Program-made: the position numbers and the translations under genes | The notes under the pieces: generated by a model | The model's input: only the letters and a program-made list of their open reading frames with translations | The model's database searches: none | What the model was told of the DNA's origin: nothing | Assembly: GCF_964204645.1 (NCBI RefSeq) | Contig: NC_134031.1 | Span: forward strand, 11,968,088 to 12,032,087 | Length of the DNA: 64,000 nucleotides | Direction: 5' to 3' | DNA from: Tubulanus polymorphus | Lineage: Eukaryota; Animalia; Nemertea | Part shown: one piece after another, positions 3,001-38,925 of the stretch | How the letters are laid out: each line of letters opens with the position of its first letter | How positions within the stretch are numbered: position 1 is the first letter of the stretch

Positions 3001-4715
3001 GACATTTAGGAAATAAAAGATTTGAAGATTATTTAACAGCAGTAAAATTAAAAAGAACGTCCATGAAATTTAATAAACCAATATTTATAGGTTCAACCGT
3101 TTTAGAAATTTCAAAGCTATTGATGTATAATTTTTATTACAATGTTTTACAACCATTGTTTGGGGAAAAACATATAGAAATTCTGTACTTCGATTCTGTA
3201 ACGGCCGACACCCCAATATTATTAAAATGTAATAATAAAATATTGGTAAGAAGAATTTCAGAAATAATTCCAAAACAAAATGAATGTTATATTTCATATG
3301 GTGAAAAAGAACTAATACAAATAAATGGTTTAATGGATGTTTGGACAAGAAATGGATGGAAAAAATTAAAGAATATTACTAGGCATAAAACAAATAAGAA
3401 AATCTATAGAGTTAGAACTAAATTAGGATTTGTAGATGTTACAGAAGATCATAGTTTAATTAAACGAAATGGTGATAAAATAAAACCAACTGATATAAAA
3501 ATTGGAGATGAATTATTACATAAAAGATATTTCCAAAGAATGAATCATATGTCATTCGATGAAATTATTGATAATATTTATAATATAGAACACGAAACAT
3601 TAGAAGAAAAAGAATATTTTATCAAAGGATTTTTCATGGGTGATGGTTCAGCAGGTGTGTATAAATATGTTTGGGGTAATAAATATTGTTGGTATTTATG
3701 CAATCAAGACTTAAGATTATTAGAAAGAATTAAGAAATTCTGTGAAGAAGTTTATCCAAATAAAACATTTAGAATCATGGATGTTATGAAATCATCAGCA
3801 GTTTATAGAATACTTGTAAATAATCCTAAAGATTTTGCTATAGAATATAATGATGAATTCTATATTCATGCAATAGTGAAAAGTAATACTTCAACAAAAG
3901 AAAAGATAGTTCCAGATTATGTATTAAATGCAAAAAATAATTTAAGAAAATGGTTCTTTATTGGATTCTACGCAGCTGATGGTACTAAAAAATTTACAAA
4001 GGATAAAAAGATAACCTTTGCACAGAAAGGAAAAGTTGCTATATCAGGGTTAAATATATTATGTAATTCATTAGGCTTCAATATGAATATTGGATTGATT
4101 AAATCTAAACCAAATTGTTTTAATCTAAGCCACACAGAAAAAGATTTAACTGAAGAAGTTAAAGATTTATTTGAAATATATAACCCAACTGACTATGTTT
4201 ATGATTTATCAACAGATGATGGAACATTCAATTCTGGGTTCCCATTAATCCAAAAAAATACGGATGCGTACATACTAAAAATCAAGACAAATGACATAAC
4301 AAAAGACTTAAAAACATTAAAACATCATTTTGATTTTAGTAATTATCCCAAAGATCATGAACTATTTAGCAATGATAATAAAAAGATTCCTGGTAAGTTT
4401 AAAGATGAATTAGGAGGTGATGAAATGATTGAATTTGTTGGGATAAGAAGTAAAATGTATAGTTACAGAACAAAAGATCATGAAGCTAAAAAGTTAAAAG
4501 GAATAACTAAACATGTGGTTGGTAAACATATAGAATTTCAAGATTATATAAAGTGTTTATATAAATCAATTGTAATGAAACACAAAATGAATTGTTTAAG
4601 ATCAGAAAATCATGAGATGTACATTAATGAAGTTGAAAAAACTAGTTTAAATCCATTTGATGATAAAAGGCATATTTCAGATGATGGTATAAAAACATTA
4701 CCTTATGGCCATTAA
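30..4715 (+). pseudogene. Protein-primed family B DNA polymerase (pPolB) with EndoVII/HNH insert and intein; one in-frame TGA at 1509-1511; frame open to the window edge
   Basis: ORFs 30..1511 and 1560..4715 share a frame and are colinear with the 1343-aa PolB of copy B. Motifs YGDFES, FHNLSGYD, YIDANNLYGWAM, KLMNNSFYGK, YFD/TD. TGA replaces the last Cys of CYYC. Confidence 0.93.
3195..4259 (+). mobile_element. Intein (355 aa) with LAGLIDADG homing endonuclease in PolB catalytic motif C
   Basis: In-frame insertion relative to copy B (YFD|TDSY vs YFD|SVTADTP...LIQKN|TDAY). Block A SVTADTPIL, block B VTEDHSL, LAGLIDADG motifs FIKGFFMGDGS and FFIGFYAADGT, block F YVYDLSTDDGTF, terminal KN followed by +1 Thr. 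Confidence 0.95.
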
Positions 4716-6013
4716 AACATAAAATCAATATCATCATACTCGAAATCACTATTGGATTCTTCATTTTCATTTAATTGTTCAGGTTCTTCTTCCATTCCAT
4801 TTTTCTCATTTAAATAAAGTTCTATCTTGTTCCACATTTCATCTCGCTCTCTTTGTTTCTTTTTGTTTGTTAATTCATAAAATGGAATTATAATATCTAG
4901 GTTTAAATAATTTACAATCTTATTTAAAAAGAATTCATAATTTATTGAATCTGTTATTCTATTTTCCAAATAATACATTAATATTTGTTTAAATATTTTT
5001 TTTATATTTTCCATATCTTCTTCTGTTAATTTAGGTTTTTCATAATAATCGTTAAATAATAAATATAAATACATTTTCTTTTGTTTTGTGTTAAATGTTG
5101 ATGGAATAATTGTTTTTATAATATCTTTTTTAGTTATTTCACCATTTTTATTTTCTATTATTTTCATTTTTTCAAGCCATTGCATATATTCTGGTGTATG
5201 ATCTTCTATAGAAAATATTTTAAAAATTTCATCTAGATAATTTAATTTTGGTTCTATGAGAAAATCTCTAGTTTTTTCTTCACCCCATAAATTCTTTTGC
5301 CATCCACATTCAACACAAAATAACACAGTACCTTCTTGTCTTAAGGTCGCATAACTACATTGTGGGCATTTTCGTTTATAATTTATGGGTAATAGATCTT
5401 CATTAAGCTCTTGGTATTTTCTTACGTTTTCTTTATGTTTTATTGTTCTATTATGTAGATTTGAATTACTTGTTGTAATAATCAATTTACAATATTTACA
5501 ATAATATGTTTTTCTTGTTAATTCATTATATTGTTTTTCTAACTTTTCAACTGTTTCTTTATTATCTGGTAACGTTTTCTCATATTTTATTTTTTCTAAT
5601 AAATTATTTTTTCTTTCATTGAATTCAGTTTCAAATTTATTAGAAATTTTATCTATATGTGCTTTACGAAATTGATGATTCTCCCAATCTTCTATATTTT
5701 CAGGGCTATATTTTACTTGACAAGGCTCACAGAAATGATCTTTTATATTATCCTTATCATAGAATAAGAAAGGTCTTTTCCAAATAACTTCAGGTTCAAC
5801 TTCAGCAGAATTACTATCAACATTAGCCGTTGCGCCATTAATTCTACACTTCTCTGAATGTTTTTTAACATAATTTCTTGAGAATAATTTATTACATTTT
5901 GGACAGTTTATTTTAGGGGGTTTATAATTTTCATCATGTTTTTTCATATGTCGAGCCATATTACTTTTTCTTAGAAGTTCACCACAAATTTCGCATGCTA
6001 TCTTCTCATCCAT
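4712..6013 (-). CDS. Multi-zinc-finger protein fused to a poxvirus A2/VLTF3-like late transcription factor domain
   Basis: N-terminal C2H2-type fingers, then the zinc ribbon CPQC...FCVECG and LTEEDMENIKKIFKQILMYYLENRITDSINYEFFLNKI...DEMWNKI. This matches my recollection of vaccinia A2 (IFKHLVFFCQEN...TINYSFFLDKI). Confidence 0.75.
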   Translation of the reverse strand: MDEKIACEICGELLRKSNMARHMKKHDENYKPPKINCPKCNKLFSRNYVKKHSEKCRINGATANVDSNSAEVEPEVIWKRPFLFYDKDNIKDHFCEPCQVKYSPENIEDWENHQFRKAHIDKISNKFETEFNERKNNLLEKIKYEKTLPDNKETVEKLEKQYNELTRKTYYCKYCKLIITTSNSNLHNRTIKHKENVRKYQELNEDLLPINYKRKCPQCSYATLRQEGTVLFCVECGWQKNLWGEEKTRDFLIEPKLNYLDEIFKIFSIEDHTPEYMQWLEKMKIIENKNGEITKKDIIKTIIPSTFNTKQKKMYLYLLFNDYYEKPKLTEEDMENIKKIFKQILMYYLENRITDSINYEFFLNKIVNYLNLDIIIPFYELTNKKKQRERDEMWNKIELYLNEKNGMEEEPEQLNENEESNSDFEYDDIDFMF

Positions 6014-6081
6014 TTATTAAGGAAAAATTTTATTAAAATTAATTTTTAGTGATGAGCGGTAATTTTTTTATGTTATAAATA

Positions 6082-6840
6082 ATGGTAGAATTAAAAGAAT
6101 ACAGAATATTTATTGATTCTAGAAAACTTACAAATTATAAATCTCATAATTTACTAGTACAATTAGATAGAGAATTCAAGAATTGTGTAGATTTAAAATT
6201 AGTTAATATAAGTTTATGTAATTCTTTTTATAATATATCGGATAAAAGTCTAGAACATTTAATTTTTTCAATCTTTTACAAAAAAAGGAATAAATGGTTT
6301 TTTATATATTTAAAACCAGGATTATATAATTTAGATACATTAACACAAGAAATTAATAGAAAAGCTCGAGCTAAATTAGGAAGTGATTCCGGATTTAGTA
6401 TTAGAATTTTAAAAAGTGCTAGTTCTAATAAAATAAAGATTAGGTTAGCTAATGACGAACAATTTAAATTTACAATAAGAAAACCTTTAGCTAAACTGTT
6501 AGGAATTGCACCAGATACCGTTACAGCATACGCAGAAGGTAACTCAAATATAATACCTTTTACACACTTTTATATTTATTGCAATTTAATCGATCCTACA
6601 AAAACATTTGAAGCAACTAAAGATACAATTTGTAATTCTGGTTTATTAAATATTTTACCATTAAAAAATGTCAAACAATTTGGAACTCAAATAAATTATA
6701 ATTTAACTGAATGTGATTTCAAACCTTGTATTCCACATTTCAATAATTTTAAATTAGAAATAAGAAATCATAATGGTTATTTAATTGATTTGAATAACTT
6801 TCCTGTAATTTATGAATTAGTTATAAGATGTAAAGAGTAA
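6082..6840 (+). CDS. Minor capsid (penton, single jelly-roll) protein
   Basis: Size and motifs typical of Polinton PX/penton (IFIDSR; FYIYCNLI; FKLEIRNHNGYLIDLNNFPVIYELVIR); conserved in copy B. Confidence 0.7.
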   Translation: MVELKEYRIFIDSRKLTNYKSHNLLVQLDREFKNCVDLKLVNISLCNSFYNISDKSLEHLIFSIFYKKRNKWFFIYLKPGLYNLDTLTQEINRKARAKLGSDSGFSIRILKSASSNKIKIRLANDEQFKFTIRKPLAKLLGIAPDTVTAYAEGNSNIIPFTHFYIYCNLIDPTKTFEATKDTICNSGLLNILPLKNVKQFGTQINYNLTECDFKPCIPHFNNFKLEIRNHNGYLIDLNNFPVIYELVIRCKE

Positions 6841-6856
6841 TTTTTCACCTATATAA

Positions 6857-7213
6857 ATGAATATAACTGTTGGACCGAGTATATGTTTTGGATTTGATTT
6901 TAAACGTGAGAAAGAAATGAAATTTAACATTAATGATGTAATAACACATATCAAAAATATTGCATTTTCTAATGAAACAACATTTGAGTATGAAACAACA
7001 ATAGATAAAGAAACTTTAAATGTAGAAAAGATTACTAATTTAATTAGAGAATCTTTAAGATTTTATGAATTAGATGAAGATTTTATCATAGATGATATCA
7101 AAAAAATAATAATTGAAATATATGATAATCATAAAACTAGTAATGAAATAAATGTTGAATTAATCATAAATAAGTTAACTAAATATTTTGAAGATAGTAA
7201 TTTTTTTGATTAA
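6857..7213 (+). CDS. Conserved hypothetical protein
   Basis: Near-identical homologue at 26192..26539; TAAATG start. Confidence 0.75.
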   Translation: MNITVGPSICFGFDFKREKEMKFNINDVITHIKNIAFSNETTFEYETTIDKETLNVEKITNLIRESLRFYELDEDFIIDDIKKIIIEIYDNHKTSNEINVELIINKLTKYFEDSNFFD

Positions 7214-7216
7214 TAA

Positions 7217-7438
7217 ATGAGTGATAATAAGTGGATAATAACTGGATTATATAATGGCGCATTACTATCAGTTGGAACTGTTGGTTATTCAATGGTATTA
7301 AAAAAAGTATTCAAAATGGGAAGTGTTAATGTTGATAGATTTGATATAAATGATATTCTAAAATTAACATTAGCAGTTACTTTATCTAATTTAACTATTG
7401 ATTATTTGGAAAAACAAAAATATATTCCTCCCATATAA
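7217..7438 (+). CDS. Small putative membrane protein
   Basis: Two hydrophobic stretches; near-identical copy at 26540..26761; TAAATG start. Confidence 0.7.
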   Translation: MSDNKWIITGLYNGALLSVGTVGYSMVLKKVFKMGSVNVDRFDINDILKLTLAVTLSNLTIDYLEKQKYIPPI

Positions 7439-7462
7439 ATACATAATTTTTTTGTTAAATAA

Positions 7463-7885
7463 ATGGCTTCTGCAATTATAACTATTATAGGATCGGCAAT
7501 TGTTAACGCTTTAGCATTTACTGGTGGTGGTTATTTATTTAAACATATTGATAAAAATAGTTCATTAGGAGAACAAAGAAGACATAACTTAGCGTTAGAG
7601 AAATACAATAAAGCTGCAGAAGAATATAGAGAAAAGAGGCAAAACTATATGGATTATATTAACAAAGAATTATATGATCAGAAGATTTCACATAGAGATT
7701 TTCAATCAGTTGATGATGCAATGAGTTTATATAACGCAGTAACAAATAAAGAAAAATTACATCTATACAAACCTAAATTATCAGATTATTATACCCCAAG
7801 TAAAGAACAACAGAAATATGAAATAATATGGATTTTAGGTGGAACTGTTATTGTTATATTTGTTGCTTATAAATTTACTAATTAG
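7463..7885 (+). CDS. Putative membrane protein (N- and C-terminal hydrophobic helices, central coiled coil)
   Basis: Identical protein at 26786..27208; TAAATG start. Confidence 0.75.
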   Translation: MASAIITIIGSAIVNALAFTGGGYLFKHIDKNSSLGEQRRHNLALEKYNKAAEEYREKRQNYMDYINKELYDQKISHRDFQSVDDAMSLYNAVTNKEKLHLYKPKLSDYYTPSKEQQKYEIIWILGGTVIVIFVAYKFTN

Positions 7886-7904
7886 TAATTTTTATTCTAA
7901 ATAA

Positions 7905-8339
7905 ATGGAAGATAAAGTTGATAGTATTGATATTATTCCTCATGATATAAATAAAACTAAATTAAAAACATATTTAGAAAAACAAATATTAGAATTTGAA
8001 AGTGACTTAAAGATAAAAAAGAAAAAATATTTAAAAAGTAAAATTATATATTATTTGATTATCAGTGGTTCGGTTACAATTAGTTCCGTAATAACATTTC
8101 TAGCAATATTCAGCCCATTAACACCTTTAGCTATATCAATTGGTGTATTAGGATTAAGTTCAAGTGTTTTAACTGGTATAAGTTCAAAATTAAATATAAA
8201 AAGTAATAAAGAAAAAATTAAAACTAATATAAAAGAAATTAATAAATTAAAGAACACACTAGATTATATAATAAGTTTAAATGGTCATATAACAGTTGAA
8301 GAACAAGATAAATTATTAAAAGAATTAATAAATTATTAA
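7905..8339 (+). CDS. Two-TM membrane protein
   Basis: Hydrophobic hairpin IIYYLIISGSV...VLTGI; near-identical copy at 27228..27662. Confidence 0.75.
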   Translation: MEDKVDSIDIIPHDINKTKLKTYLEKQILEFESDLKIKKKKYLKSKIIYYLIISGSVTISSVITFLAIFSPLTPLAISIGVLGLSSSVLTGISSKLNIKSNKEKIKTNIKEINKLKNTLDYIISLNGHITVEEQDKLLKELINY

Positions 8340-8356
8340 TTTTTTTAATTATATAA

Positions 8357-9745
8357 ATGGTAGATAGTTTTCCAAAAGCTTTCCAATATAATAAATCAAT
8401 TAAATATAATATTCCAGCAATAGATTTTAATAAAGATATTACATATAGAAATGAAGTTTTAGATTCATTAATTGATTTATATATTTATGTTACTGAAACT
8501 AATAATTTTAATGCAAAGATGGAAAATATATTTCATGTATATTTAATTAATTTTAAAAAATTGAAAGGTGAAAAACAATGGTTATTAAAATCTAATATGA
8601 AGTATTGGCAGAACCAATTAAATTTTGCTGTTTATTGTGCAACAACAGGATGCGGAATTTGTTGGAATGATCATTTGAATAATTCTAAATATAAATTAAT
8701 TCAAAGTTTATTTAGATTTCATACATACTTTCAAATCAGAATAATATTAAATGAATTAGAGTGCGCTTTACCAGGATCTAGGTATTTCAAAGAATTAGAT
8801 AATAATATCAATTTATCTAAGTTTTATAAAATTTGTAATGAATTTAATATAGATATAAATAATTCTGATTTTAGAACAAAAATTGGAACAATAAGATCAC
8901 TTCCTTGCCCTAAAAAGATTGCAGAATATTGTGCACTTCCCATACCATCTAATAGCTTTTATAATATCTATAATAATAAATTAGGTTATGGTAAAATAGA
9001 AACAAAAGATTTAGAAACATTAAATTTCAATAAATTACCAAAATTTTATGATCATTTAAAACAAGAAAACAATAATGGTTGGGTATATTTTATTTTAGAG
9101 AATAGTGAAGGTTTTACTAAATCAGGTATAGAAAGAATAAATCAATCTATTAGAACTTATTTGATATGTATTCTAGGATCACAAGTTGAAACAAGATCAC
9201 CGATAATTGGAAATTTGAATACATCATTCGATACACAAAAACAATTTAAAGTTTTATTTGAAGATTCAATTCATAATGATAAAAATAGATCGATTCCAGA
9301 AAACATTATAAGATATCAAAATTATTTAGATAAATCTCATGTAAGACTTAATTATTGTATAGGCCCTAATCTATTAATTATTTCTAATGATTTAGTATTG
9401 AAGATGGGAAATATAATTGGTTATAATAATCTAATTAAAACTGCAACAATAAATAATTCATTTGGGTTAAATGATATAAATAAAAAGATTATCACTGCTC
9501 CAAAATTAATGGAAGGTGAAAAAAAAAAAAAAAAAAAAAAAAAAACAGAAACTAAAACTAAGAATATTAAATTAAATAATGATTCTAAAATAAAAGATTA
9601 CAATACATCAGAAAATAATAGAACTGATAAAATTCAACATGATATAATTAAAACTGATAATGATAATAAATCACATGAAAATACTAAATTAGCTATAACT
9701 TGTATAGGAATTGTAATCGGAGGAATATTATATTTTAAATTTTAA
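8357..9745 (+). CDS. C-terminally anchored putative virion membrane protein (462 aa)
   Basis: C-terminal TM LAITCIGIVIGGILYFKF; homologue at 27679..28980. Confidence 0.75.
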   Translation: MVDSFPKAFQYNKSIKYNIPAIDFNKDITYRNEVLDSLIDLYIYVTETNNFNAKMENIFHVYLINFKKLKGEKQWLLKSNMKYWQNQLNFAVYCATTGCGICWNDHLNNSKYKLIQSLFRFHTYFQIRIILNELECALPGSRYFKELDNNINLSKFYKICNEFNIDINNSDFRTKIGTIRSLPCPKKIAEYCALPIPSNSFYNIYNNKLGYGKIETKDLETLNFNKLPKFYDHLKQENNNGWVYFILENSEGFTKSGIERINQSIRTYLICILGSQVETRSPIIGNLNTSFDTQKQFKVLFEDSIHNDKNRSIPENIIRYQNYLDKSHVRLNYCIGPNLLIISNDLVLKMGNIIGYNNLIKTATINNSFGLNDINKKIITAPKLMEGEKKKKKKKKTETKTKNIKLNNDSKIKDYNTSENNRTDKIQHDIIKTDNDNKSHENTKLAITCIGIVIGGILYFKF

Positions 9746-9761
9746 TTTTTTTATTATATAA

Positions 9762-11192
9762 ATGGAAGTAGAAGGTGTAGAAGATATTGGAATGGATCCT
9801 TTTGATGAACCTGGTATAACTGATGAACAACCACCTGATTTTGATGAAACAAGTTTTAATGATGGTAATGAAACAGCATATAATTCTAATTTAACTACAC
9901 CCCAATTTATTGACAAAGCACGTTCAAAGATAAGTATTGAAAATGAAGTACCAGAAATAACAGAAAAAGAATACAATTATCATGAAATTATTCATGATTT
10001 TAAACCAATGTTAAAAAAATCTGGTTTCAATATATCAAATAAAGGTATGGATCATTTAGTAGAAGATTTGAAATATTTAAATGGTGAATATTATTGGAAA
10101 TTGAAAGGTGACTATTATTTTAAGATTTCAAATCTTAAAAGTAGTGATAAAATAATAACACAATCAACTTTAAATTTATTAGAACAATCTAGAATTAAGA
10201 AAATCAATAATGATGTTATAACTGATGTTACAGAAAAAGAAAGATCTGATAATTTAAAAGAATTTAAACAAAGAAATGCTAAATTTTTTAAGATAATTAA
10301 TGAAATTTTAGAAACAGAAACAACTTCTGAACAGAATATAACTTCCAAAACTAGTAAACTTAAATCAAATAAAGTTCCAATTGAAAAACTTTTACCGAAT
10401 GGATTAATTGATGCAACAGATCAAGAATTAGAAGATTTAGATATATTTTCTGATAAAGCAATTAGAGAAATTATTAGTATAAGACTTGCATCTAATAAAA
10501 TTGCACATGATAAAAGTATAAGAGATTTTAAAATTAGAACTTTAGAAAAAGAATTAACTGATAAAAATAAAGAAATAGAAAAAATAAAATCTGATTTAGA
10601 TCATCAAGTAATTGATGAAATAGAATATAGGCAAAAAGAATTACGTTTAGAAAAAGAAAAAGATGATTTAGAATATAACATAGAATTACAAAAAGAAGAA
10701 ATTAAATTATTGTTAAAATCATATGATTATAATATTAATAGATTAAAAGTTATTTTTAAAGATTTGTTGATTAAACCAAATTCTGAAATATCATTAAAAG
10801 ACAGAATAAAGTTATTATTTAAATTAGAAGGAATAACAATTCTTTCAATTGTAACAGCTGTAACTATGTTATTTACAACAATTAGTTTAGCAATATCAAA
10901 TGCTTTGAAATCTACTCCTACTCCCAATAAACCAGATAAACCTCCAGGTAATAATTCTATACAAGATAAAGTTAAGGATGGTTTAAAGAAATTAGCAAAA
11001 TATTTATGGGAACTATCTAAAAAATCTGCTGCAGCATTGCCAGGAGTTATTGCTTCAATTGTTGGTTTTATATTGAAATCTGCAGGAAACATTATTAACT
11101 TTGCTGCTGAACATATTATTTTATTTTTAATTACAGTTGTAAGTGCTATTATTTTTGGTTTAGTAAATATGATATCAAAAAATATCAAGTAA
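9762..11192 (+). CDS. Coiled-coil membrane protein (acidic N-terminus, C-terminal hydrophobic helices)
   Basis: Charged heptad-rich centre and multiple hydrophobic segments; homologue at 28997..30457. Confidence 0.75.
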   Translation: MEVEGVEDIGMDPFDEPGITDEQPPDFDETSFNDGNETAYNSNLTTPQFIDKARSKISIENEVPEITEKEYNYHEIIHDFKPMLKKSGFNISNKGMDHLVEDLKYLNGEYYWKLKGDYYFKISNLKSSDKIITQSTLNLLEQSRIKKINNDVITDVTEKERSDNLKEFKQRNAKFFKIINEILETETTSEQNITSKTSKLKSNKVPIEKLLPNGLIDATDQELEDLDIFSDKAIREIISIRLASNKIAHDKSIRDFKIRTLEKELTDKNKEIEKIKSDLDHQVIDEIEYRQKELRLEKEKDDLEYNIELQKEEIKLLLKSYDYNINRLKVIFKDLLIKPNSEISLKDRIKLLFKLEGITILSIVTAVTMLFTTISLAISNALKSTPTPNKPDKPPGNNSIQDKVKDGLKKLAKYLWELSKKSAAALPGVIASIVGFILKSAGNIINFAAEHIILFLITVVSAIIFGLVNMISKNIK

Positions 11193-11233
11193 ACCATGAT
11201 AAAAAATAAATAATTAATTTTTTTGTTAAATAA

Positions 11234-12482
11234 ATGAGTGGGAGTTATATAAGTCCTTCCAAGATTTCTAGAATATCTAATGCTATTAAAGCAGAAAGAT
11301 CACATCATATAATTACTCATAACCCTTCAAATATTAATCCCGATGAAACTTTATATGTTAGAATCCCTCGATTAACACAAAATACTTTTTATGTTCCAAA
11401 TAGTATTTATTTATCAGCCGATATAAAAGTAACTGGCCATGATAACAATTATGTTGTTGATAATGTTGGAAGATATTTGATTAAAAAATTAACTATAAAG
11501 ATTGGTCCGGAAACAGTTTTCTCATTAGATGATTATAATTTATTTATGCATTATAAAGATTTATGGTTAACTAAAGAAAATAGAAATAATATGATATTTC
11601 AAGGCATCCAATCGGAAAACCATAATAAATTAAGATCTGAAGCCAATAATGCAGTAGTAACTCGTGCCACAGATAATTTGATTAAAAAGATTTATGGAAG
11701 CAAATATAAAATTCCATTAGACTTTGAATTGATAAATAATAATGCACCTTTATATAAATACGCAATTCAAGAAGATATTATATTTGAGATAACATTTGCT
11801 CCTGTAAATGAAATTGTATTATCTAGCGTTGTTAAAGATATGGGTTATAAATTATCGAATATATGTTTAGAATATAACACAGTAACTAATGAAAATATTG
11901 CTAGCACAATTCAAACTCAATACAATCAAGGATTTTCATTATTATATGATTATATTGATAAATTTAAAACTGTAACTATTAATGCAAATGATGAAATAAT
12001 TAATGAGAATATTAACTTTCCTAGAAGATCTATTAAAGGTATATTAATATTTTTTTACTATTGCAACATATTCCAATGGTGCAATAAATGTTGATAATTA
12101 TTATAATCCTGAAATAACAAAAGTAGAAATAACTATTGAAGGTATAGCGAATAAAATATTTTGTCAAGGAATGAGAATGATTGATCAATGGCCAGAAATT
12201 AAAAAACATTTTATGAATGAAAAAGTAAAATCATTTGAAAATTGTAATATTAATCAAATTGATTATTATACCGGTAATAAATATGCATTATGGTTAGATT
12301 TTAGAACAACTGAAGATAATTCATTACATGGTTCTGGAAAAAAACTACAGAACACTAAAGATGGAATACAATTATTCATGAAAAAGAATAAAGGAATCAA
12401 AAATTTTAAAATGCATATTTATATTATATCTGACGCACAATTAAATATTGTAAATTCACAATTAGATAGTATTCAATATTAG
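11234..12482 (+). pseudogene. Major capsid protein (double jelly-roll-like), +1 frameshift in T-run near 12050-12056
   Basis: Colinear with 30530..31776. About 415 aa when repaired, beta-rich and next to INT/ATPase. T7 here versus T6 in copy B. Confidence 0.7.
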
Positions 12483-12512
12483 AAATATAAAGTTAAAATT
12501 AAGGATATATAA

Positions 12513-14249: not shown

Positions 14250-14515
14250 ATTCAACTAGCTTGTTAATCTAATTGAATTCTAGTTGAATTCTAGTTATTG
14301 GTAGTTGTAACAAAAATCAACTAGATTTAACAATATTTTAACTAGCTTGTCAATCTAGTCTAATTCTAGTTACATTCTAGTTGAATTCTAGTTGTTAGTA
14401 GTTGAAACAAAAATCAACTAGATTTAACAAGAAATAAACAAAAACAACAATATTTCAACTAGCTTGTTAATCTAGTTGAATTCTAGTTACATTCTAGTTG
14501 AATTCTAGTTGCAAC
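14250..14515. repeat. Complex CTAGTT-based tandem/inverted repeat array
   Basis: About three units starting CAACTAGCTTGTTAATCTAGTTGAATTCTAGTT, with internal inverted copies TCAACTAGATTTAACAA. Confidence 0.8.
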
Positions 14516-14542
14516 AACACAACTAATTTATTTGTTTTATAA

Positions 14543-27208: not shown

Positions 27209-27227
27209 TAATTTTTTTTCTAAATAA

Positions 27228-27662: not shown

Positions 27663-27678
27663 TTTTTTAGTTATATAA

Positions 27679-28980: not shown

Positions 28981-28996
28981 TTTTTTTATTATATAA

Positions 28997-30457: not shown

Positions 30458-30529
30458 ACCATGATATCAAAAAATATCAAGTAAACCATGATATCAAAAA
30501 ATAAATAATTAATTTTTTTTGTTAAATAA

Positions 30530-31776
30530 ATGAGTGGGAGTTATATAAGTCCTTCGAAGAATCATAGAATATCTAATGCTATTAAAGCAGAAAGATCACA
30601 TCATATAATTACTCATAACCCTTCAAATATTAATCCCGATGAAACTTTATACGTTAGAATCCCGAGATTAACACAAAATACTTTTTATGTTCCAAATAGT
30701 ATTTATTTATCAGCTGATATAAAAGTAATCGGTAATAATAATAATTATGTTGTTGATAATGTTGGAAGATATTTGATTAAAAAGTTAACATGGAGATTGG
30801 TCCAGAAACAGTTTTCTCATTAGATGATTATAATTTATTTTCACATTATAAAGATTTATGGTTAACTAAAGAAAATAGAAATAATATGATATTTCAAGGA
30901 ATTCAATCAGAAAACCAAAATAAATTAAGATCAGAAGCTAATAGCGCAATATTAACTAATGATGTAGATAAATTGATAAAAAGTATATATGGAAGCAAAT
31001 ATAAAATTCCATTAGACTTTGAATTGATAAATAATAATGCACCTTTATATAAATACGCAATTCAAGAAGACGTTATATTTGAGATAACATTTGCTCCTGT
31101 AAATGAAATTGTATTATCTAGCGTTGTTAAAGATATGAGTTATAAATTATCGAATATATGTTTAGAATATGATACAGTAACTGATGAAAATATTTCAAGT
31201 ATAATTCAAACTAAATACAATCAAGGATTTTCATTATTATATGATTATATTGATAAATTTAAAACTGTAACTATTAATGCAAATGATGAAATAATTAATG
31301 AGAATATTAACTTTCCTAGAAGATCTATTAAAGGTATATTAATATTTTTTACCATTGGAACGTATACTAATGGTGCAATAAATGTTGACAATTATTATAA
31401 TCCTGAAATAACAAAAGTAGAAATAACTATCGAAGGAATAGCGAATAAAATATTTTGTCAAGGAATGAGAATGATTGATCAATGGCCAGAAATTAGAAAA
31501 CATTTTATGAATGAAAAAATAAAATCATCTGAAGATTGTAACATTAATCAAATTGATTATTATACCGGTAATAAATATGCATTATGGTTAGATTTTAGAA
31601 CAACTGAAGATAATTCATTACATGGTTCTGGAAAAAAACTACAGAACACTAAAGATGGAATACAATTATTCATGACAAAGAAAAAGGGAATCAAAAATTT
31701 TAAAATGCATATTTATATTATATCTGACGCGCAATTAAATATTGTAAATTCACAATTAGATAGTGTTATGTATTAA
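30530..31776 (+). pseudogene. Major capsid protein, -1 frameshift near 30790
   Basis: One base missing versus copy A (TTAACATGGAG vs TTAACTATAAAG). Confidence 0.7.
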
Positions 31777-31808
31777 AATTTTAACTTTAATAAAAATATA
31801 TATAATAA

Positions 31809-32702
31809 ATGGAAGGGGGTAAAGTATATGAAAGAATCAAAGCTGATAAAGAAATCAATGATGATTTGTATTATGTAATACCTTATAAAAGAATAAATGA
31901 ATATATTGGAACATTTTTATTAAATGAATTAAATCAATACAAAGAATATTTAATTGAACGTAATAATAAAAGTGGTGTTGTTAATAATAGTGTAATTGAT
32001 AATAATGTAATACCTACTACACCTGTAATACCTACTACTACATCTGTAATACCTACTACATCTGTAATACCTACTACATCTAATAATAAAATAATATTAG
32101 ATGTTAGTGAAAATAGAAATTATTGTGGTTATTGTAATGGTGAATTTTCAAACGCTCCATCAAATTGGAATAAACATATGAATACAAAGGTACATATTAC
32201 TAATGTTATAGAACGTGTTGGTTTAAGAGAATTTATAGAACACCCATTTAGATATGTTACGAAGTTTGTTTCAAATCAAAAAGTAAATGGTGAAAAAATA
32301 TATGAAGATTTATTATTAGCAACACCTAATAAAGATGAATTAGATTTAACCGATGCTAATGAAATATTAGGATCAAACACTGTAAATGAAATATTAGGAG
32401 CAAACACTAATAAAGATGATAATGAAAATGGTACCATACGCCCACATGGTGATATAATTACAGATAAACATATTGATAATAAAGATTCTATGAAACATAA
32501 AGAAGAAACTATTGATGATATAATAGAAAGGATGAATAAGTTTAAAAATGAAACAACTATTGATGATGCGGTAAAAAGGGTGAAGAATAAGTATAAAAAT
32601 AATGAAGAATTTGAAGAAGAAAATTCGGTAGAGCATTTAAATATGTTGTTAGGGTCTGATAGTGAAAGTGATTCAGAAAGTAATTATCTAACACTCGAAT
32701 AA
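31809..32702 (+). CDS. Hypothetical protein with VIPTT(S) repeats and a C2H2-type zinc finger
   Basis: CGYC...NWNKHMNTKVH; TAAATG start; no counterpart in the visible part of copy A. Confidence 0.7.
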   Translation: MEGGKVYERIKADKEINDDLYYVIPYKRINEYIGTFLLNELNQYKEYLIERNNKSGVVNNSVIDNNVIPTTPVIPTTTSVIPTTSVIPTTSNNKIILDVSENRNYCGYCNGEFSNAPSNWNKHMNTKVHITNVIERVGLREFIEHPFRYVTKFVSNQKVNGEKIYEDLLLATPNKDELDLTDANEILGSNTVNEILGANTNKDDNENGTIRPHGDIITDKHIDNKDSMKHKEETIDDIIERMNKFKNETTIDDAVKRVKNKYKNNEEFEEENSVEHLNMLLGSDSESDSESNYLTLE

Positions 32703-32756
32703 TAAAAGTTGAAAATTTTATAAAATAATAGTAAATAAAAAAAGGTTTTAATTATT

Positions 32757-32884
32757 TAAGGTATCTAATAGGGTATCAGGTATTAGGGCATCTAATGGGG
32801 TATTAGGTATTAAGGTATCTAATGGGGTATTAGGTATTAAGGTATCTAATACATAGGTATTAGGGTATCTAATACATAGGTATA
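32757..32884. repeat. GGTATCTAATGGGGTATTAGGTATTA tandem array between convergent gene blocks
   Basis: About five degenerate units visible. Confidence 0.8.
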
Positions 32885-32891
32885 CAAATAG

Positions 32892-33506
32892 TTATTTTAT
32901 AAATTTATATTCATATGGAAATTGTAATCTCATTAATAATTTTGAACCTTTATTATTCTTTAATTTATTCATATATTCATCATGTAATTCAGGAGGTATA
33001 ATTTGATTTTCTTCCAATGATTGTTGCATAGATTTTCTATCTTTGTTGTAGAATAAAACTAGAAATCTTATATTCTCTCTAAAATCTTTCACAATTGAAT
33101 TATATTTCTGATTTAAAACCCAAGTTGTTATCCCAAAATGTCTACCAGAGAAAGCTAAATAACATAACTCACTTTCTCTAATTTTAGAATCATGTAAATT
33201 TGCGCAATCATCAATAATAAATAATGTATTAGATCCTTTATAAATATCTAATGCAATTTTTATACAATTATCTAAATTTTCTTTTACTGTTTTAGAATTT
33301 AATATAATAAACTTTTTATCTTTAAAAACTATATCTCTATTATACGTTTCATTCATTTCATAAGTTGGGCAGAATAATATTATATTATCAAAATGATTTT
33401 TATAAATAGTTTCTAATAAATATAATATGAAGTGTGTTTTACCACAATTTGTAACTCCAGTTATTAACATATTATGTGGTTCAAATATAAACAAATCTTT
33501 ATTCAT
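32892..33506 (-). CDS. Genome packaging ATPase
   Basis: GVTNCGKT, LFIIDD, SGRH. Confidence 0.92.
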   Translation of the reverse strand: MNKDLFIFEPHNMLITGVTNCGKTHFILYLLETIYKNHFDNIILFCPTYEMNETYNRDIVFKDKKFIILNSKTVKENLDNCIKIALDIYKGSNTLFIIDDCANLHDSKIRESELCYLAFSGRHFGITTWVLNQKYNSIVKDFRENIRFLVLFYNKDRKSMQQSLEENQIIPPELHDEYMNKLKNNKGSKLLMRLQFPYEYKFIK

Positions 33507-34587
33507 TTATTCTTTTAATTTTACTAGATAAAATCCATTCATTAAATTTATCATCATATCCTTTATATTTCACCAAAGAATACTTTTTTCCTTTAAGAGT
33601 TTTTGTTTTCAATACCTTTTCTATTTTGTATTCTATTTCATCTGGGTTTGGTACAAGTGATAATTCTTGTTCATAGAAATAACCTAATATTTCTTCATCT
33701 TTTAAATCAAACAATTTATAAACAAATGGTTTAGTTAATATTATCTTTTTAATCTTGAATATTTCTTCAGTAAAATTAGGGGTGTAACCTTTATAAAATG
33801 TTTTTCTATATTTAGAAATTCTAACATGTTGTCCTATTTTAAATTTAGGTTCTCCAAAATCATGTGTAACAAATGCTCCATATAAATTATTCCAAACTAT
33901 TTCTGAATTTTCTTCTTTTCTAGCTTGTATAGGTTTCATATTTATAGAACTATGTTTAGAATTATTATAACCTTTCACTAAATCATCTAACACATCGATA
34001 TATTTATATGTTTCATTAGCAGTAAAATATTTCCACATTCTAGTTTTCAATGTTTTATTAAATCTTTCTATAACAGATGCTTTTTTATCTGAATGTGTTG
34101 AAAAATATTCTACATCGTTATCAGTTAATAGTTTTTTGAAATGTTTGTTATAAAATTCCTTACCTTCATCAAATTGTATTTTATCTGGGATAGCTTCTTT
34201 AAATATTAATTTGAAAGAATTTGTAACTTCTATTCCAGTTTTATTTTTGATTGGAATTGACCATGCGTATCGACTGAATATATCTATAACATTTAGTATC
34301 CAAAAATATCCTTTGTTATATTCTTCTAAGTTTTTCATGTCAATTAAATCAGCTTGCCATTGTTGGTCAATATATGAAACCATTACTTTTCTTGTTAAAT
34401 ATTTTTTATCCATCTTTTTATGAATTTGATATGTGGGTTGATTTTGTAACCATGATTTTAATTCACTATATTTCATTTTTTCTTTATCAGATTTAATTTT
34501 ATCCCATAATTCCGAAACACTTGAATATGAAACTTCACTTTCTGGGTTATAATATAACGCTCTTAAATATTGTTCTTTTTTCATCAT
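33499..34587 (-). CDS. rve integrase with chromodomain
   Basis: WQADLIDM, IQFDEGKEF, VIERFNKTL; C-terminal chromodomain. Confidence 0.95.
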   Translation of the reverse strand: MMKKEQYLRALYYNPESEVSYSSVSELWDKIKSDKEKMKYSELKSWLQNQPTYQIHKKMDKKYLTRKVMVSYIDQQWQADLIDMKNLEEYNKGYFWILNVIDIFSRYAWSIPIKNKTGIEVTNSFKLIFKEAIPDKIQFDEGKEFYNKHFKKLLTDNDVEYFSTHSDKKASVIERFNKTLKTRMWKYFTANETYKYIDVLDDLVKGYNNSKHSSINMKPIQARKEENSEIVWNNLYGAFVTHDFGEPKFKIGQHVRISKYRKTFYKGYTPNFTEEIFKIKKIILTKPFVYKLFDLKDEEILGYFYEQELSLVPNPDEIEYKIEKVLKTKTLKGKKYSLVKYKGYDDKFNEWILSSKIKRINE

Positions 34588-34590
34588 ATT

Positions 34591-34998
34591 TTAATCCATT
34601 AATAATATTTTAGATTTATTTTCATTTGATTTATTTTCTGGTGGTTTATTGTCTGTACATGGGTAACGAAGTTTCCGTTCATCATTATCATTATCACTTT
34701 CATTATTATTAAATTTTGATTTATATATTACACCGGATAATATAATTACTGTTACTAATCCAATTGTAATATATAATTTATAATTACTTCCAGCATTAGA
34801 AGAATTAGATGGATTATTATTTGAATCAATACCACCGTGTGGGTGCTGTACGGCACCATCAGATAAAGTCTGTGATTCATTTATATCAGTTAATTTCTTT
34901 TTCTTAGCTTTTTTTAATTCTGAAGATCTTTTACCTAATTCTCTTGCCCATTTAATTTGTTTCTCGGATCTAGCCTTTTTCTTAACGCCATCACTCAT
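34591..34998 (-). CDS. Basic N-terminus, single-TM protein
   Basis: Homologue of 15081..15449. Confidence 0.7.
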   Translation of the reverse strand: MSDGVKKKARSEKQIKWARELGKRSSELKKAKKKKLTDINESQTLSDGAVQHPHGGIDSNNNPSNSSNAGSNYKLYITIGLVTVIILSGVIYKSKFNNNESDNDNDERKLRYPCTDNKPPENKSNENKSKILLMD

Positions 34999-35593
34999 TT
35001 ATTTTAGTTAATTTTTGTTCTGATTCATTTTCTGTTTCACTGTTTGGTTGTAGTACATCTGTTTCGTTCTTACCTGATTTATATTCCATAGGTTTGATAT
35101 TCGAAAATGTTATGACGCCAGTAGAAATCAATGTCATAACCGATCCTAATTGAAATGAAGCATAACCGACCCATTTTTGTAATTCAGTCATAACTAAGTA
35201 GTCATTTTTCAAATCACTATATAATTTATTTTCATCATCAATTGGTATTAACTGGTTACATAATTTTGAATAACATTTGACAATACCATCTGAAATAGAA
35301 TCATTTATTCTAGCTAATCTTGACTCTTCATAAATCTTAAAATATTTTATTACTTTTTCTTTATTCATATTATCTAATTCTTGAAAAGTTATTGTTTTAC
35401 CAATAAACTCTTTAGTTTTTCCACTCGCAATCAATAGTTCTAGATGATGCTTACAATATAAATAGTATTCATAATCTATATTGTTATTAACTTGAATAGA
35501 ATTAGAAACAACTGTATCTTTATTATCACTAATACCCAAATCATCTAATGTCTTTTCAATATCAATATTATTCTTATTAGATTTCTTTGACAT
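34991..35593 (-). CDS. Conserved hypothetical protein
   Basis: Homologue of 14543..15148. Confidence 0.75.
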   Translation of the reverse strand: MSKKSNKNNIDIEKTLDDLGISDNKDTVVSNSIQVNNNIDYEYYLYCKHHLELLIASGKTKEFIGKTITFQELDNMNKEKVIKYFKIYEESRLARINDSISDGIVKCYSKLCNQLIPIDDENKLYSDLKNDYLVMTELQKWVGYASFQLGSVMTLISTGVITFSNIKPMEYKSGKNETDVLQPNSETENESEQKLTKINE

Positions 35594-35873
35594 TTATATT
35601 AGAGGAAAAAAGCAAAAAAAAATATTATAAGTATTCTTCAAATGATACTAGCTAGTTAAAGCTAAAGAATTCTAGTATTAGTTATTGTTTTTTTAGTATT
35701 TTTTATTTGTGATATAAAGTATTCTTTTTTGAAAAGAAAATATTAAAAATATAATAGAATTCACAAGCTAGTTGAAGGTATGTAATTTTTATTATATTGT
35801 ATTTAAATTCTATTTGATATCTCACTACTTTTGTTTATCTATTAGGAGCAGTAGTTATAACTGTCCAGATAAG

Positions 35874-36548
35874 TCATTTCGGATCCTTGATATCAAATTC
35901 CTCAACGTATCGTTCATTATTTGGATTATTATTCCATTGATCAATAAATTTCTTTGCTTTTGTTAACTGTTCTGAATATAACTGTAAATCTAGTTTATTA
36001 GATTTGATTTGATTTTCTTTCTTTTCTAAAGGTCTTAAATTTTTCCAACCCCAAATAAGTTTTTTATTGTATTCATCATTCATGTTAAATTTAGATATTG
36101 GTAACACATGATCAATATGGTAATAATCCCCATAATTATCTATATTCATTTTATCATCGAATTGAAATATTATCCATGATTTGAGAAATTCATCTGAACA
36201 ACCCAATAAATTAGATAGTGTTTCTGAATGTGTTTCTTTGTTGAATAATTGTGTTAATCTAGACCGTAAACATTGTTTCAATCTAAAATTAAGATCTGTT
36301 TGATATCTTCCTCTCATATATTCTGTCATATAATCATTATAAGATTCTCTATTATCTTCTCGGTATTGTTTGGTATATAGTTTAAAACAAGTTTTGCAGC
36401 AATATTGAAAACCATCTTTGCTAGTCTTGCGCTTACTAAATTCTGTTAATGATTTATCTAATTCACATTTAGAACACTTTTTGTAATATATGTTTATAAC
36501 GCCAGTGTTATTTGTAATATTGATAATTTGTGGTTGTTCTGGTTCCAT
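35874..36548 (-). CDS. Stand-alone HNH endonuclease of a type common in large DNA viruses
   Basis: Zinc ribbon KKCSKC...CKTC, LLGCS, NYGDYYHIDHVLP, NLRPLEKKENQIKSNK. Confidence 0.82.
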   Translation of the reverse strand: MEPEQPQIINITNNTGVINIYYKKCSKCELDKSLTEFSKRKTSKDGFQYCCKTCFKLYTKQYREDNRESYNDYMTEYMRGRYQTDLNFRLKQCLRSRLTQLFNKETHSETLSNLLGCSDEFLKSWIIFQFDDKMNIDNYGDYYHIDHVLPISKFNMNDEYNKKLIWGWKNLRPLEKKENQIKSNKLDLQLYSEQLTKAKKFIDQWNNNPNNERYVEEFDIKDPK

Positions 36549-36682
36549 TTATTATACGTATTTTTTTACTAAATTGGTTAATATTTTATAATCCTCTTCC
36601 ATTTCTTCGACCAACATCATCCTTTTTCATTCCTCGCTGCTTTTGATAAGTCAGTTTCAATTCCTTGATATCTAAATAATAC

Positions 36683-37033
36683 CACTGGGCAAAACCGCTC
36701 TTATAGGAGCGCTTTTGCTTAATGCGCATGCGTTAATCATAATTATATATTCATTCTGTAAATTCTGTAAAATAGAAACGACCGACATAAAATATCAAAA
36801 CGTGTTCGCACTAAGCAAAACCGCTCTTATTGGAGCGTTTTTACTTAATACGCATGCGCTAATCATAATTATATATTCATTCTGTAAAATAGAAACAACT
36901 GAACATAGAAAATTCAAACGCATGTGCACTAGGCAAAACCGCTCTTATAGGAGCGTTTTTGATCAATGCGCATGCGCTAATCATAATTATATATTCATTC
37001 TGTAAAATAGAAACGACCGAACATAAAAATTCA
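36683..37033. repeat. Three ~120-bp tandem repeats, each with a ~30-bp imperfect palindrome
   Basis: Units start near 36683, 36809 and 36927; core GCAAAACCGCTCTTATAGGAGCGCTTTTGC followed by GCGCATGCG. Confidence 0.9.
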
Positions 37034-37120
37034 CCAATCAGATTTACACAATACATTATACAAGTATGTTCGATCGTTGTATTGACAAAATTTATAGTTT
37101 CAACTAATACATTATTTTAT

Positions 37121-37858
37121 TTATAATTCCAACCAGAACTTTTCAATTTCTGGATCATTGTCAAACATTTTTTCAATATCGTTTAAGTATTTTACTATAT
37201 CAGAAAATGACAAACTTAAAAATTGGAATCTTTTATATGTAATTAATCTCCCTACACTTCTTAATTTTCTTTCATACCCAGCACTAATACCTATATATTT
37301 TTTAACCCAAGAAGTCCAAGAAATCCCCGCAGTTTGTTTATTAAACATTAAAAATCCCCTATTTAAACAATCCCCGAAAATGATATAATCCCATAAATGC
37401 TTTGCTTTTTTAAATAACAAGGTTCTATAATTTTTTTTCAATAAAACAGTTATTTCATTAAATGATGTTACACCTTCTATTTCTTTAAAACTTACATCTT
37501 TTTCATTTGATAATTTTGATTTTAAAAACTTATTTAACTCATTTCCGCTCATTTTCTTTTTAGTTTTTGTTCCTTTTAGTCTTAACAATATTTCTACATT
37601 GGTTGTTGGTCTTTTCGGTAATGATGTTACGCTTGATTGCTGGTTTTCTATTATTTTTTCTAAAATTAATGTCATTTCTTGATGGTAATATAAATGTTTT
37701 TTAACTTCTTCTAACGTTTCATCTTCTATATCGAAAGATTCTTTTACTTCAGTACCCATTTCGGTTGGTTCATCTTCCATTTCGGTTGGTTCATCTTCCA
37801 TCTCGGTTGTCCTCTGAGAATCAAGAGTACTTCTTGATACACACGACATTTTATTCAA
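37121..37858 (-). CDS. Hypothetical protein (TEMEDEP repeats; possible helical DNA-binding C-terminal domain); first ATG at 37849
   Basis: 245-aa ORF with SWTSWVKKYIGISAGYERKL. Confidence 0.65.
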   Translation of the reverse strand: MNKMSCVSRSTLDSQRTTEMEDEPTEMEDEPTEMGTEVKESFDIEDETLEEVKKHLYYHQEMTLILEKIIENQQSSVTSLPKRPTTNVEILLRLKGTKTKKKMSGNELNKFLKSKLSNEKDVSFKEIEGVTSFNEITVLLKKNYRTLLFKKAKHLWDYIIFGDCLNRGFLMFNKQTAGISWTSWVKKYIGISAGYERKLRSVGRLITYKRFQFLSLSFSDIVKYLNDIEKMFDNDPEIEKFWLEL

Positions 37859-38340
37859 CTAAAAGATATCAGCGGTAGAACAGGAACCGCGATATTATAT
37901 GATATAAATATTTTCAAGTCTATCGTTTCTAATTATTATAACTTATTATAGTTCAAGTTATTATCTATCTAACGTAAAATAGAATTAACTGTATGAAGTT
38001 GTAGTTGTCAAAAGCACTTAAAGGTTTCATATTTAATAGCCCCAATAACTACAAAAAACAGTACTTACATTTAGATTTATAATTGTAAACTATAAACTCC
38101 TAATTTCGTTTCGAAAGATAGAATATCCTGAGCACAATGTTACAGCGTATGTCCATTTCCGGGGCGATTTCTAGAATGACACGTCGTTGATTATGCCACG
38201 TCATCTAGTTCCGGTTCTAGAATTTTCTCTACACGTTTGTAATATTATGTGTCATAATGTCTCGTCGTCATAGTAACAACTGTAACGGCTGTGAATTTAT
38301 AGATTTATTCCATAGCTCTGTACATTGAATGTATATAGGT

Positions 38341-38577
38341 TCAAATAGAATCATGTTCTAGTATAAACATCGGATCCTCAACATATTGTTCATTATTTGG
38401 ATCATTATTCCATAATTCAATAAATTTCTTTCCTTTTGTTAACTGTTCTGAATATAACTGAAAATATTCTAGTTTCAATTTATTCTCTAAATGTGTTTTA
38501 GTTTTATTGTGTCTTGCTTTTTGAGACTTATCTATATTTATCTTACATGTTGGGCAGTAGTACTTATTTGCTTCCAT
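38341..38577 (-). CDS. Chimeric ORF: PolB N-terminal 38 aa (from TIR) fused to a duplicate of the HNH C-terminus
   Basis: MEANKYYC...LKLEY is identical to PolB; QLYSEQLTKGKKFIELWNNDPNNEQYVE matches the end of ORF 35874..36548. Confidence 0.6.
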   Translation of the reverse strand: MEANKYYCPTCKINIDKSQKARHNKTKTHLENKLKLEYFQLYSEQLTKGKKFIELWNNDPNNEQYVEDPMFILEHDSI

Positions 38578-38925
38578 TCTAATACTATATTTTTTATTAA
38601 AATTGATTTTAGAAGTTCAATGATTTAAATGTTATTCATATATATATGAATATTTTAAGAGTAATAGGGGTAATAGGCTTTCGGGTTAAAGGTTGAACGG
38701 GCGGGTGAGTAAAAATGAAAAACATAAAAATAATTACAATTTCTACTTGAATTAGGAGTGAAACTCATAAAATGAAAAATAAATTCGAGCGTGTGAGAAT
38801 TTATTTTTCATTTTTATGAGTTTCGCGAGTAATTCAAGTAGAAATTGTAATTATTTTTATGTTTTTCATTTTTTACGAGCTCGACCGTTCGACCTTTGAT
38901 CTGAAAGCCTATTACCCCTATTACT
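38468..38925 (-). repeat. Right TIR of Polinton B (hairpin 38660-38925)
   Basis: Reverse complement of 20653-21110. Confidence 0.95.

Follow-up and report, generated by a model that had tools for sequence, protein, structure and literature searches.

A poxvirus-type start signal in Polintons of the nemertean Tubulanus polymorphus: candidate virophage-like parasites of a pox-like virus

Results and Discussion

The window analysed here, a stretch of 64,000 nt from the nemertean Tubulanus polymorphus (RefSeq assembly GCF_964204645.1, contig NC_134031.1, positions 11,968,088 to 12,032,087), carries two Polintons, a partial copy A (1–15931) and a complete copy B (20653–38925, about 18 kb), and 27 of their 31 scorable genes start with TAAATG, a start signal of the poxvirus type. 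With a probability of roughly 0.6 we read this Polinton lineage as a virophage-like parasite that would depend on a poxvirus-type helper, whose post-replicative RNA polymerase would transcribe the genes of the element in the cytoplasm of infected cells, with integration as a side branch or a reservoir.

A preliminary description of this stretch had counted TAAATG at 13 of the 14 starts that could be scored in copy A and at 14 of 17 in copy B, and we could reproduce both counts (14/18 for B if the 78-aa open reading frame (ORF) 38341–38577 close to the terminal inverted repeat (TIR), which starts TAGAATG, is counted) as well as the strings quoted at 7463, 11234 and 8357 and the four exceptions, TAAATAATG (6082), TAAAATG (21001 and 37849) and TAAAATATG (34587). 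The two copies are related (72–90% nucleotide identity) and are thus not independent samples. Among ATGs that are not starts, TAA precedes 32 of 604 in A (5.3%) and 44 of 715 in B (6.2%), and in shuffled element DNA it precedes 285 of 3965 first ATGs (7.2%, compared with 27/31 starts), so that the expected enrichment over a shuffled control was found and neither the composition nor a 'first ATG after stop' rule explains the motif (binomial P ~1e-13 for A and ~1e-12 for B, at p = 0.08).

A run of at least five T ending 5–9 nt before TAAAT is present at 17 of the 27 TAAATG starts, which confirms for these the T-run reported ahead of the starts. At most of the other ten, which belong to both ATPases, the integrase of A and some small genes, the T's follow an A-tract instead. 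Counted from TAAAT, T is found at −9 in 89% of the window starts and at −10 and −11 in 74–78%, compared with 32–39% for the same positions at 76 internal TAAATG sites. In vaccinia late promoters TAAAT(G) overlaps the start codon and the tenth nucleotide upstream is a conserved T (PMC11980589), and in the intermediate promoters TAAA is combined with an AT-rich tract further up (PMC11980589; also PMC5294985). Judged by its sequence, the window motif has the geometry of the vaccinia late promoter. All four exceptions retain TAAA and thus correspond to the intermediate-type initiator described in PMC11980589. The starts of ATPase and integrase tend to A-tracts and those of the central gene block to T-tracts, which hints at two temporal classes.

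To follow the motif beyond the window we used the capsid, a fragment of which has 210 homologs, mostly of 405–430 aa. A profile search led to 83 loci, 38 of which could be classed (at least three ORFs of at least 100 aa and a clear state), the remaining 45 being too short, decayed or intermediate. The trait is bimodal, with at least 60% TAAATG starts in 20 of these 38 loci and at most 15% in the other 18. For a non-circular test, 28 non-redundant loci (12 near-duplicates were dropped) were classed by the start of the capsid gene and their other conserved genes were scored: if the capsid starts with TAAATG (19 loci, 20–44% GC) so do 64 of 70 other genes, and if it does not (9 loci, 26–49% GC) only 1 of 23 does, with a P of 7e-15 that overstates the evidence since the loci are related. 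An equal frequency of the motif in other Polintons, which the preliminary description had named as speaking against its claim, was thus not found. In a quick capsid tree (60 rows, SH-aLRT support only, loci with less than 150 aa of unbroken capsid excluded) the trait is present throughout the window clade with its 17 rows and in most of a second clade of 19 rows, and it is also found in the loci L026/L032 and in L037 within an otherwise negative clade; as the backbone of this tree is unresolved, gains and losses of the trait cannot be ordered. T at −9 reaches 94% in the close relatives and 75–81% at −9 to −11 in the second clade, and the peak at −9 to −11 is present in both clades, also in loci with at least 30% GC. 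In 21 divergent gene pairs with TAAATG at both starts (some loci being redundant) the two genes are 14–72 nt apart or overlap by 22–28 nt; the signal must thus be short, and it is retained even where it falls within coding sequence of the opposite gene. From these comparisons we regard TAAATG as a trait of the lineage and not as a result of AT bias.

As claimed before, no RNA polymerase is encoded: none was detected in 36 window ORFs searched against Pfam or in 14 searched against NCBIfam, and no poxvirus RNA polymerase subunit was found among 108 ORFs of the related loci (selected from their 183 non-capsid ORFs, with one added by hand).

Copy A carries a gene (4712–6013) whose C-terminal domain, consisting of a zinc ribbon and a helical domain, is VLTF3 according to its structure model. 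A full-library search with this ORF gave 23 matches, mostly zinc fingers; the notable ones are two relatives over the full length and two proteins that match the C-terminal domain. Of these last two, P0199 (29% identity to the VLTF3 domain of A over 200 aa) is the only match with a named family and carries both Pox_VLTF3 (PF04947) and the A2L zinc ribbon (PF08792); it is 63% identical to a gene of a 232-kb viral contig, the product of which carries both families too. The model (predicted local distance difference test, pLDDT, 79) has no PDB match. In Foldseek an unnamed protein is ranked first, followed by VLTF3 of an entomopoxvirus, of cowpox and again of an entomopoxvirus at ranks 2–4 (E 1e-5 to 3e-5) and by giant-virus VLTF3s at ranks 5–10 (E from 1e-4). 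The VLTF3 of A is probably pox-type, as its best matches are poxviral by a small margin. The VLTF3 gene of the preliminary description is therefore real, but only copy A has it. A word-index search with the protein found no relatives; the N-terminal part of the same gene is present at a contig end in L003, a TAAATG-positive relative that also encodes a deoxynucleoside kinase (10340–10981, PF01712, E 2e-31).

A giant-virus-type intein, an HNH gene and hairpin ends had also been named as supports. The intein is present in A but absent from B. Its nearest relatives are inteins of other protein-primed polymerases (39–46% over the full length), followed by inteins in RNA-primed polymerases (38% over ~300 aa) whose best solved relatives are polymerase delta, and no pox enzyme was found among 40 solved-structure matches of the intein-host polymerases. 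This suggests a past contact with giant viruses and not with poxviruses. The intein family is common in protein-primed polymerases on long contigs (P0212, P0213, P0215, P0220; clusters of 41, 55 and 17), which suggests that there are many intein-bearing Polintons in eukaryote assemblies. A stand-alone HNH-like gene does exist, but it was seen in B only and has a weak match. The hairpin ends are real (−95.1 kcal/mol, z −23) but were seen in B only, and they are no pox-specific sign: palindromic TIRs are reported in polinton-like viruses and other virophages (bioRxiv 10.64898/2026.07.28.741278), and a terminal protein is part of the polinton polymerases themselves (PMC11161782).

Proposed lifestyle and alternatives

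In the helper-dependent lifestyle that we propose, a particle would enter a cell together with the helper or meet a helper-infected cell, and the helper polymerase would start in the AAA of TAAATG, which would result in almost no templated 5' untranslated region (UTR) and a poly(A) leader made by slippage. The polymerase of the element would copy the linear genome, the integrase would insert copies into host chromosomes where they accumulate and decay, and the VLTF3 of the element may tune the late transcription of the helper or compete for it. Start site and leader are predictions, as are the dependence on a helper and its identity. That copies are reactivated from the chromosome or defend the host is speculation, and an inherited antiviral defence, as considered in the preliminary description, is unsupported as the capsid genes of both copies are broken. 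The proposal agrees with virophages, whose promoters match the late motif of the helper and predict which helper reactivates them (PMC10945749), and with the polinton-like viruses found in entomopoxvirus occlusion bodies (PMC11296320, section 5).

Several points weigh against a poxvirus-type helper. ORF 4712–6013 has no direct Pfam match to VLTF3, the lead of the poxviral over the giant-virus VLTF3s is only about tenfold in E-value and comes from a model built from an alignment with two pox-type rows, and the gene is missing from the complete copy B. The intein points to non-pox, polymerase delta-like enzymes. No helper virus was found: scans of viral contigs with the capsid, the intein, the VLTF3 alignment and the ATPase gave no relatives of the elements, and the single poxvirus-like contig obtained is not linked to this host. 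The poly(A) signal AATAAA is not avoided in the coding strands of the elements (127 observed, 123 expected), and it is not clearly avoided in the TAAATG-negative relatives either (71 observed, 78 expected; observed/expected (O/E) 0.90), so that the AATAAA-avoidance test is without a proven nuclear control. TAAAT-like motifs are also present in iridovirus promoters (PMC5294985). The core genes of about half of 49 coral polintoviruses are transcribed in field colonies of unknown infection status (PMC11131425), which calls for caution in assuming that integrated copies are silent. Finally, the route from a cytoplasmic poxvirus to a chromosomal copy is unexplained.

That the helper is another cytoplasmic large DNA virus with a TAAAT-like late initiator (asfa-, ego- or iridovirus or another nucleocytovirus) appears unlikely to us, although the closest non-Polinton homologs of the intein are found in polymerase delta-like enzymes, the giant-virus VLTF3s match the fold as well (Foldseek ranks 5–10) and TAAAT is present in ranavirus polymerase promoters. 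For egoviruses, the text searched contains no description of promoters. The combination of TAAAT over the ATG with a T about ten nucleotides upstream is the documented late pattern of poxviruses, conserved as far as salmon gill poxvirus, whereas the late motifs described for Mimivirus, Cafeteria roenbergensis virus (CroV) and African swine fever virus (ASFV) differ, and the best VLTF3 matches are poxviral.

Rather improbable is an autonomous nuclear element that would use the RNA polymerase II (Pol II) of the host on a compact promoter, perhaps with the TATA-binding protein (TBP) of the host and its own VLTF3-like factor, the likeness to poxviruses being due to ancestry or convergence. In its favour, the elements form a very abundant family with precise insertion into host DNA, and vaccinia late promoters are reportedly targets of TBP and YY1. 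Against it, Pol II starts ~24–30 nt from the TATA box, so that with a box directly at the ATG transcription would begin within the ORF. TATAAA, moreover, is found at no more than 10 of 27 starts in the window and 17 of 87 in relatives (as TATAAATG), the T that 100 of 110 starts have at −3 is unfavourable as a Kozak context, the 4-kb polymerase ORF contains 15 sense AATAAA while most gene ends are without it, and the complete copy B has no VLTF3. Transcription of Polinton genes in corals (PMC11131425) would fit such an element.

We give little credit to the idea that the motif is a relic of a helper-dependent ancestor, now unused, and that the copies spread only as transposons. The broken genes of both copies and the failure to find a helper speak for it, but the motif is kept across capsids only 33–73% identical to that of the window, and also in accessory genes not shared by all elements, which implies ongoing selection, and expression of integrase and polymerase would still need some route.

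Very improbable, and by these sequence comparisons already largely refuted, is that the motif is not a promoter at all and reflects AT bias, a TAA-ATG coupling of stop and start, or an overlapping AATAAA poly(A) signal of the upstream gene. The elements are indeed AT-rich (22–25% GC), AATAAATG is present at 17 of 27 window starts and the upstream stop supplies the TAA at 6 of 71 tandem starts, but the motif persists at 36–44% GC and is absent from relatives with 26–31% GC, 35 starts have a divergent neighbour and hence no upstream gene on their own strand, and the spacing to the T-tract is fixed. Against a poly(A) signal, AATAAATG is found at only 30 of 87 starts in relatives, where the two bases before TAAATG vary freely, and AATAAA follows 19 of 83 gene ends (background 15%) and lies within 60 nt of 4 of 28 convergent gene ends.

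The poxvirus early terminator TTTTTNT was also considered. It is depleted in the coding strands of the elements (13 observed, 30 expected), and this was dropped as a general avoidance of homopolymers, the controls in the elements being 0.64 for T5VT, 0.71 for T5VV and 0.34 for A7+. In a poxvirus-like locus, by contrast, the genes without TAAATG show a loss specific to the terminator (T5VT 0.38 versus T5VV 1.09).

Returning to the helper-dependent reading, the TAAATG-negative relatives allow a tentative extension of it. In 14 of them, some rows being redundant or truncated, 28 of 54 conserved genes have a TATA no more than 12 nt upstream of the ATG (background 7.7%), and 46 of the 54 have a purine at −3. 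TATA starts, often TATAG or TATAA, are seen in L014 (623–9361), L016, L017, L019, L020, L021 and L024. L014 has the clearest TATA pattern, with a TTTTC tract upstream, and carries a VLTF3-like gene (6543–7052) with a weak Pox_VLTF3 match (E 6e-4) that aligns poorly with the VLTF3 of the window. In ASFV, transcription of the late genes starts at TATA and leaves a median UTR of 9 nt (PMC7163114). From the few loci at hand, the negative relatives are not obviously ordinary nuclear elements. The TATA and TAAATG branches parallel the Cafeteria virophage types, in which distinct promoter motifs belong to distinct helpers (PMC10945749). It is conceivable, though we hold it with some doubt, that the animal Polintons of this group generally live as virophages on large DNA viruses of the cytoplasm and that each branch wears the late initiator of its helper, TAAATG with a pox-type VLTF3 here and an ASFV-like TATA with a different VLTF3 in the sister branch. 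If true, poxvirus-like and asfarvirus-like viruses of invertebrates that have yet to be discovered would have left a readable trace in the start-codon contexts of animal genomes, and the abundant integrated copies could serve as inherited defence.

Organisation of the window

Two gene-dense AT-rich blocks (21–26% GC) flank a block of 41–47% GC. According to Pfam, the AT-rich blocks encode polymerase B, an RVE integrase with chromodomain and an A32 ATPase, and the middle block has the gag, protease and integrase of a long terminal repeat (LTR) retrotransposon. The features are as follows.

1–15931: Polinton copy A, partial; its left part lies beyond the window and its right end is lost at the junction to the Gypsy fragment
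30–4715, + strand: A protein-primed DNA polymerase B (PF03175, E 4e-16), stop at 1509–1511, start not scorable
3195–4259, + strand: A intein, 355 aa, with LAGLIDADG-like domain, inserted in the YFD|TD motif of the polymerase
4712–6013, − strand: A zinc fingers fused to a VLTF3/A2-like domain (residues ~205–415), start TAAATG
6082–11192, + strand: A seven conserved genes, unnamed except for the next two entries, TAAATG at six starts
6082–6840, + strand: A possible penton, weak DUF5901 match
7905–8339, + strand: A SLATT-like membrane protein
11234–12482, + strand: A putative major capsid protein gene, interrupted (pieces 11234–12094 and 12171–12482), start TAAATG
12513–14249, + strand: A RVE integrase with chromodomain, then A32-type packaging ATPase, both TAAATG
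14543–15928: A two small conserved genes (+) and a 73-aa relative of the 25061 gene of B (−), all TAAATG
15932–20646, − strand: remnant of a Gypsy-type LTR retrotransposon (gag, protease, integrase), copy B being inserted in its 5' region
20647–20652, + strand: target-site duplication CACAAG, left
20653–21114, + strand: B left TIR, 462 nt, the outer 269 nt forming one long imperfect hairpin
21001–25032, + strand: B polymerase, unbroken ORF of 1343 aa with endonuclease VII-like domain, no intein, TAAAATG behind an A-tract
25061–30457, + strand: B block of conserved genes with orthologs in A, TAAATG at each of the eight starts scored
30530–31776, + strand: B putative major capsid protein gene, frameshift near 30790–30823, start TAAATG
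31809–32702, + strand: B accessory gene, 297 aa, common to three close relatives, start TAAATG
32892–35593, − strand: B ATPase, integrase and two small conserved genes, a block inverted relative to A
35874–36548, − strand: B HNH-like gene, weak HNH_4 match (E 0.043), start TAAATG
37121–37849, − strand: B orphan ORF, 242 aa, start TAAAATG
38464–38925, − strand: B right TIR, 462 nt, the exact and perfect inverse of the left one
38926–38931, + strand: target-site duplication CACAAG, right

Both copies are damaged, A by the stop in the polymerase and the interrupted capsid gene and B by the frameshift in the capsid gene and two split genes (27679–28980 and 28997–30457), so that neither could form particles without help from other copies. 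The capsid gene of A matches Capsid_N with E 0.003, under the Pfam cut-off, and the penton candidates of both copies (6082–6840 in A and 25420–26175 in B) were picked by their size and a weak DUF5901 match. The polymerase ORF of B shares 74–76% DNA identity with that of A. The orphan ORF 37121–37849 has no family or structure match in Pfam, NCBIfam and PDB, and its model is poor (pLDDT 46). Between it and the HNH-like gene three tandem units of 118 nt with short palindromes (GCGCATGCGC) are located (36683–37033), and the 78-aa ORF 38341–38577 (− strand) in the right end is a chimera of the first ~38 polymerase residues, from the TIR, and a copy of the HNH-like C-terminus. In copy A, a run of 27 A (9519–9545) lies inside ORF 8357–9745, the B ortholog of which is without it; long A-runs are otherwise avoided in the coding DNA of the elements (A7+ O/E 0.34), and the run could be an assembly error. 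Beside the ATPase block of A, the AT-rich non-coding DNA at 14240–14515 has 11-nt TCTAGTTGAAT repeats, with related sequence in B at 35640–35800.

The boundaries of copy B are confirmed by contigs of three public runs of one organism, which join 20646 to 38926 with six letters shared; the joined form could represent an allele without the insertion or a further copy of the Gypsy target. The same runs contain thousands of divergent contigs on the element, and for the most part the summed depth is hundreds of times higher than in the left flank. This points to the element family being large, although the depth is no copy number. The terminal 23 nt are repeated inverted at the inner foot of the hairpin (20653–20921 and 38657–38925), so that the end sequence is present twice per TIR, and 63 nt at the hairpin tip are missing in other copies seen in the public runs. 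The Gypsy remnant is without most of its reverse transcriptase, and at its junction to A (15932–15996) 33 nt are duplicated, including the promoter-like T-tract of the last gene of A. The flank contains dispersed and tandem host repeats of 151–154 nt (46397–46766, 49014–49145, 53471–53600 and 55643–56077), a possible host exon near 49850–50110 (+ strand) and what we take to be a LINE-like reverse transcriptase remnant (53740–55630, − strand), which fits an animal genome. No Rfam family was found in the window.

Comparison with known systems

Regarding their classification, the elements have the protein-primed polymerase B, the PF00665 integrase and the PF04665 ATPase of Polintoviricetes (the latter two above the cut-off in both copies), and B also has the TIR and the 6-bp duplication. 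The putative capsid has no PDB sequence match. The adenovirus-type cysteine protease of most Group 1 Maverick-Polintons gave no Pfam match in the 36 ORFs, the unnamed ones of which were not all folded. The elements are probably group 2 Maverick-Polintons in the sense of bioRxiv 10.64898/2026.06.19.733378, a label taken from gene content only. With the virophage lifestyle they have in common that there is no own RNA polymerase and that the promoter motif is common with late genes of large DNA viruses.

Compared with Maverick/Polinton elements ('adintoviruses') they show the same polymerase B, RVE integrase, A32 ATPase and putative capsid gene, a length of ~18 kb, TIRs, a 6-bp duplication and an animal host, but no maturation protease was detected here, A has an intein and the ends of B are 269-nt hairpins. 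VLTF3 homologs have already been reported in some polintoviruses (PMC11131425, PMC8502044), while promoters of animal Polintons are not mentioned in the accessible text of PMC8502044, PMC11131425, PMC11296320, two 2026 preprints and 10.1101/2023.08.22.554363. We also found no report of pox-type promoters in Polintons in the literature covered, which leaves out most subscription journals. The pox-style start signal in Polintons and the TATA starts of their negative relatives thus appear to be new, their function being predicted. Virions of animal Maverick/Polintons have not been observed (bioRxiv 10.64898/2026.06.19.733378); a helper-matched promoter would explain that particles are missed without the right co-infection. 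If our reading is true, the virophage lifestyle extends from protists to integrated animal elements, and a poxvirus-type virus is predicted in this host.

Among the close parallels are the endogenous mavirus-like elements (EMALEs) of Cafeteria (PMC10945749), which have the same RVE integration, many copies, no RNA polymerase and element-type promoter motifs matching the late promoter of the helper. EMALEs are Virophaviricetes of a protist with a known helper and with proven reactivation and protection, whereas the elements described here have an animal host and a pox-type motif and are known from sequence alone. The polinton-like viruses associated with entomopoxviruses (PMC11296320) have likewise been proposed as hyperparasites of animal poxviruses, and one of their lineages is a divergent Maverick-Polinton branch; unlike the window elements they are ~12 kb long and have a cysteine protease and no RVE integrase, and the accessible main text contains no analysis of promoters, motifs or VLTF and the supplement none of promoters or VLTF. 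With the late and intermediate promoters of vaccinia (PMC11980589, PMC5294985) the window elements have in common TAAAT(G) over the start, the T about ten nucleotides upstream and the TAAA variants with an upstream A-tract, but unlike in vaccinia these predicted promoters are part of a chromosomally integrated element that encodes no polymerase to read them.

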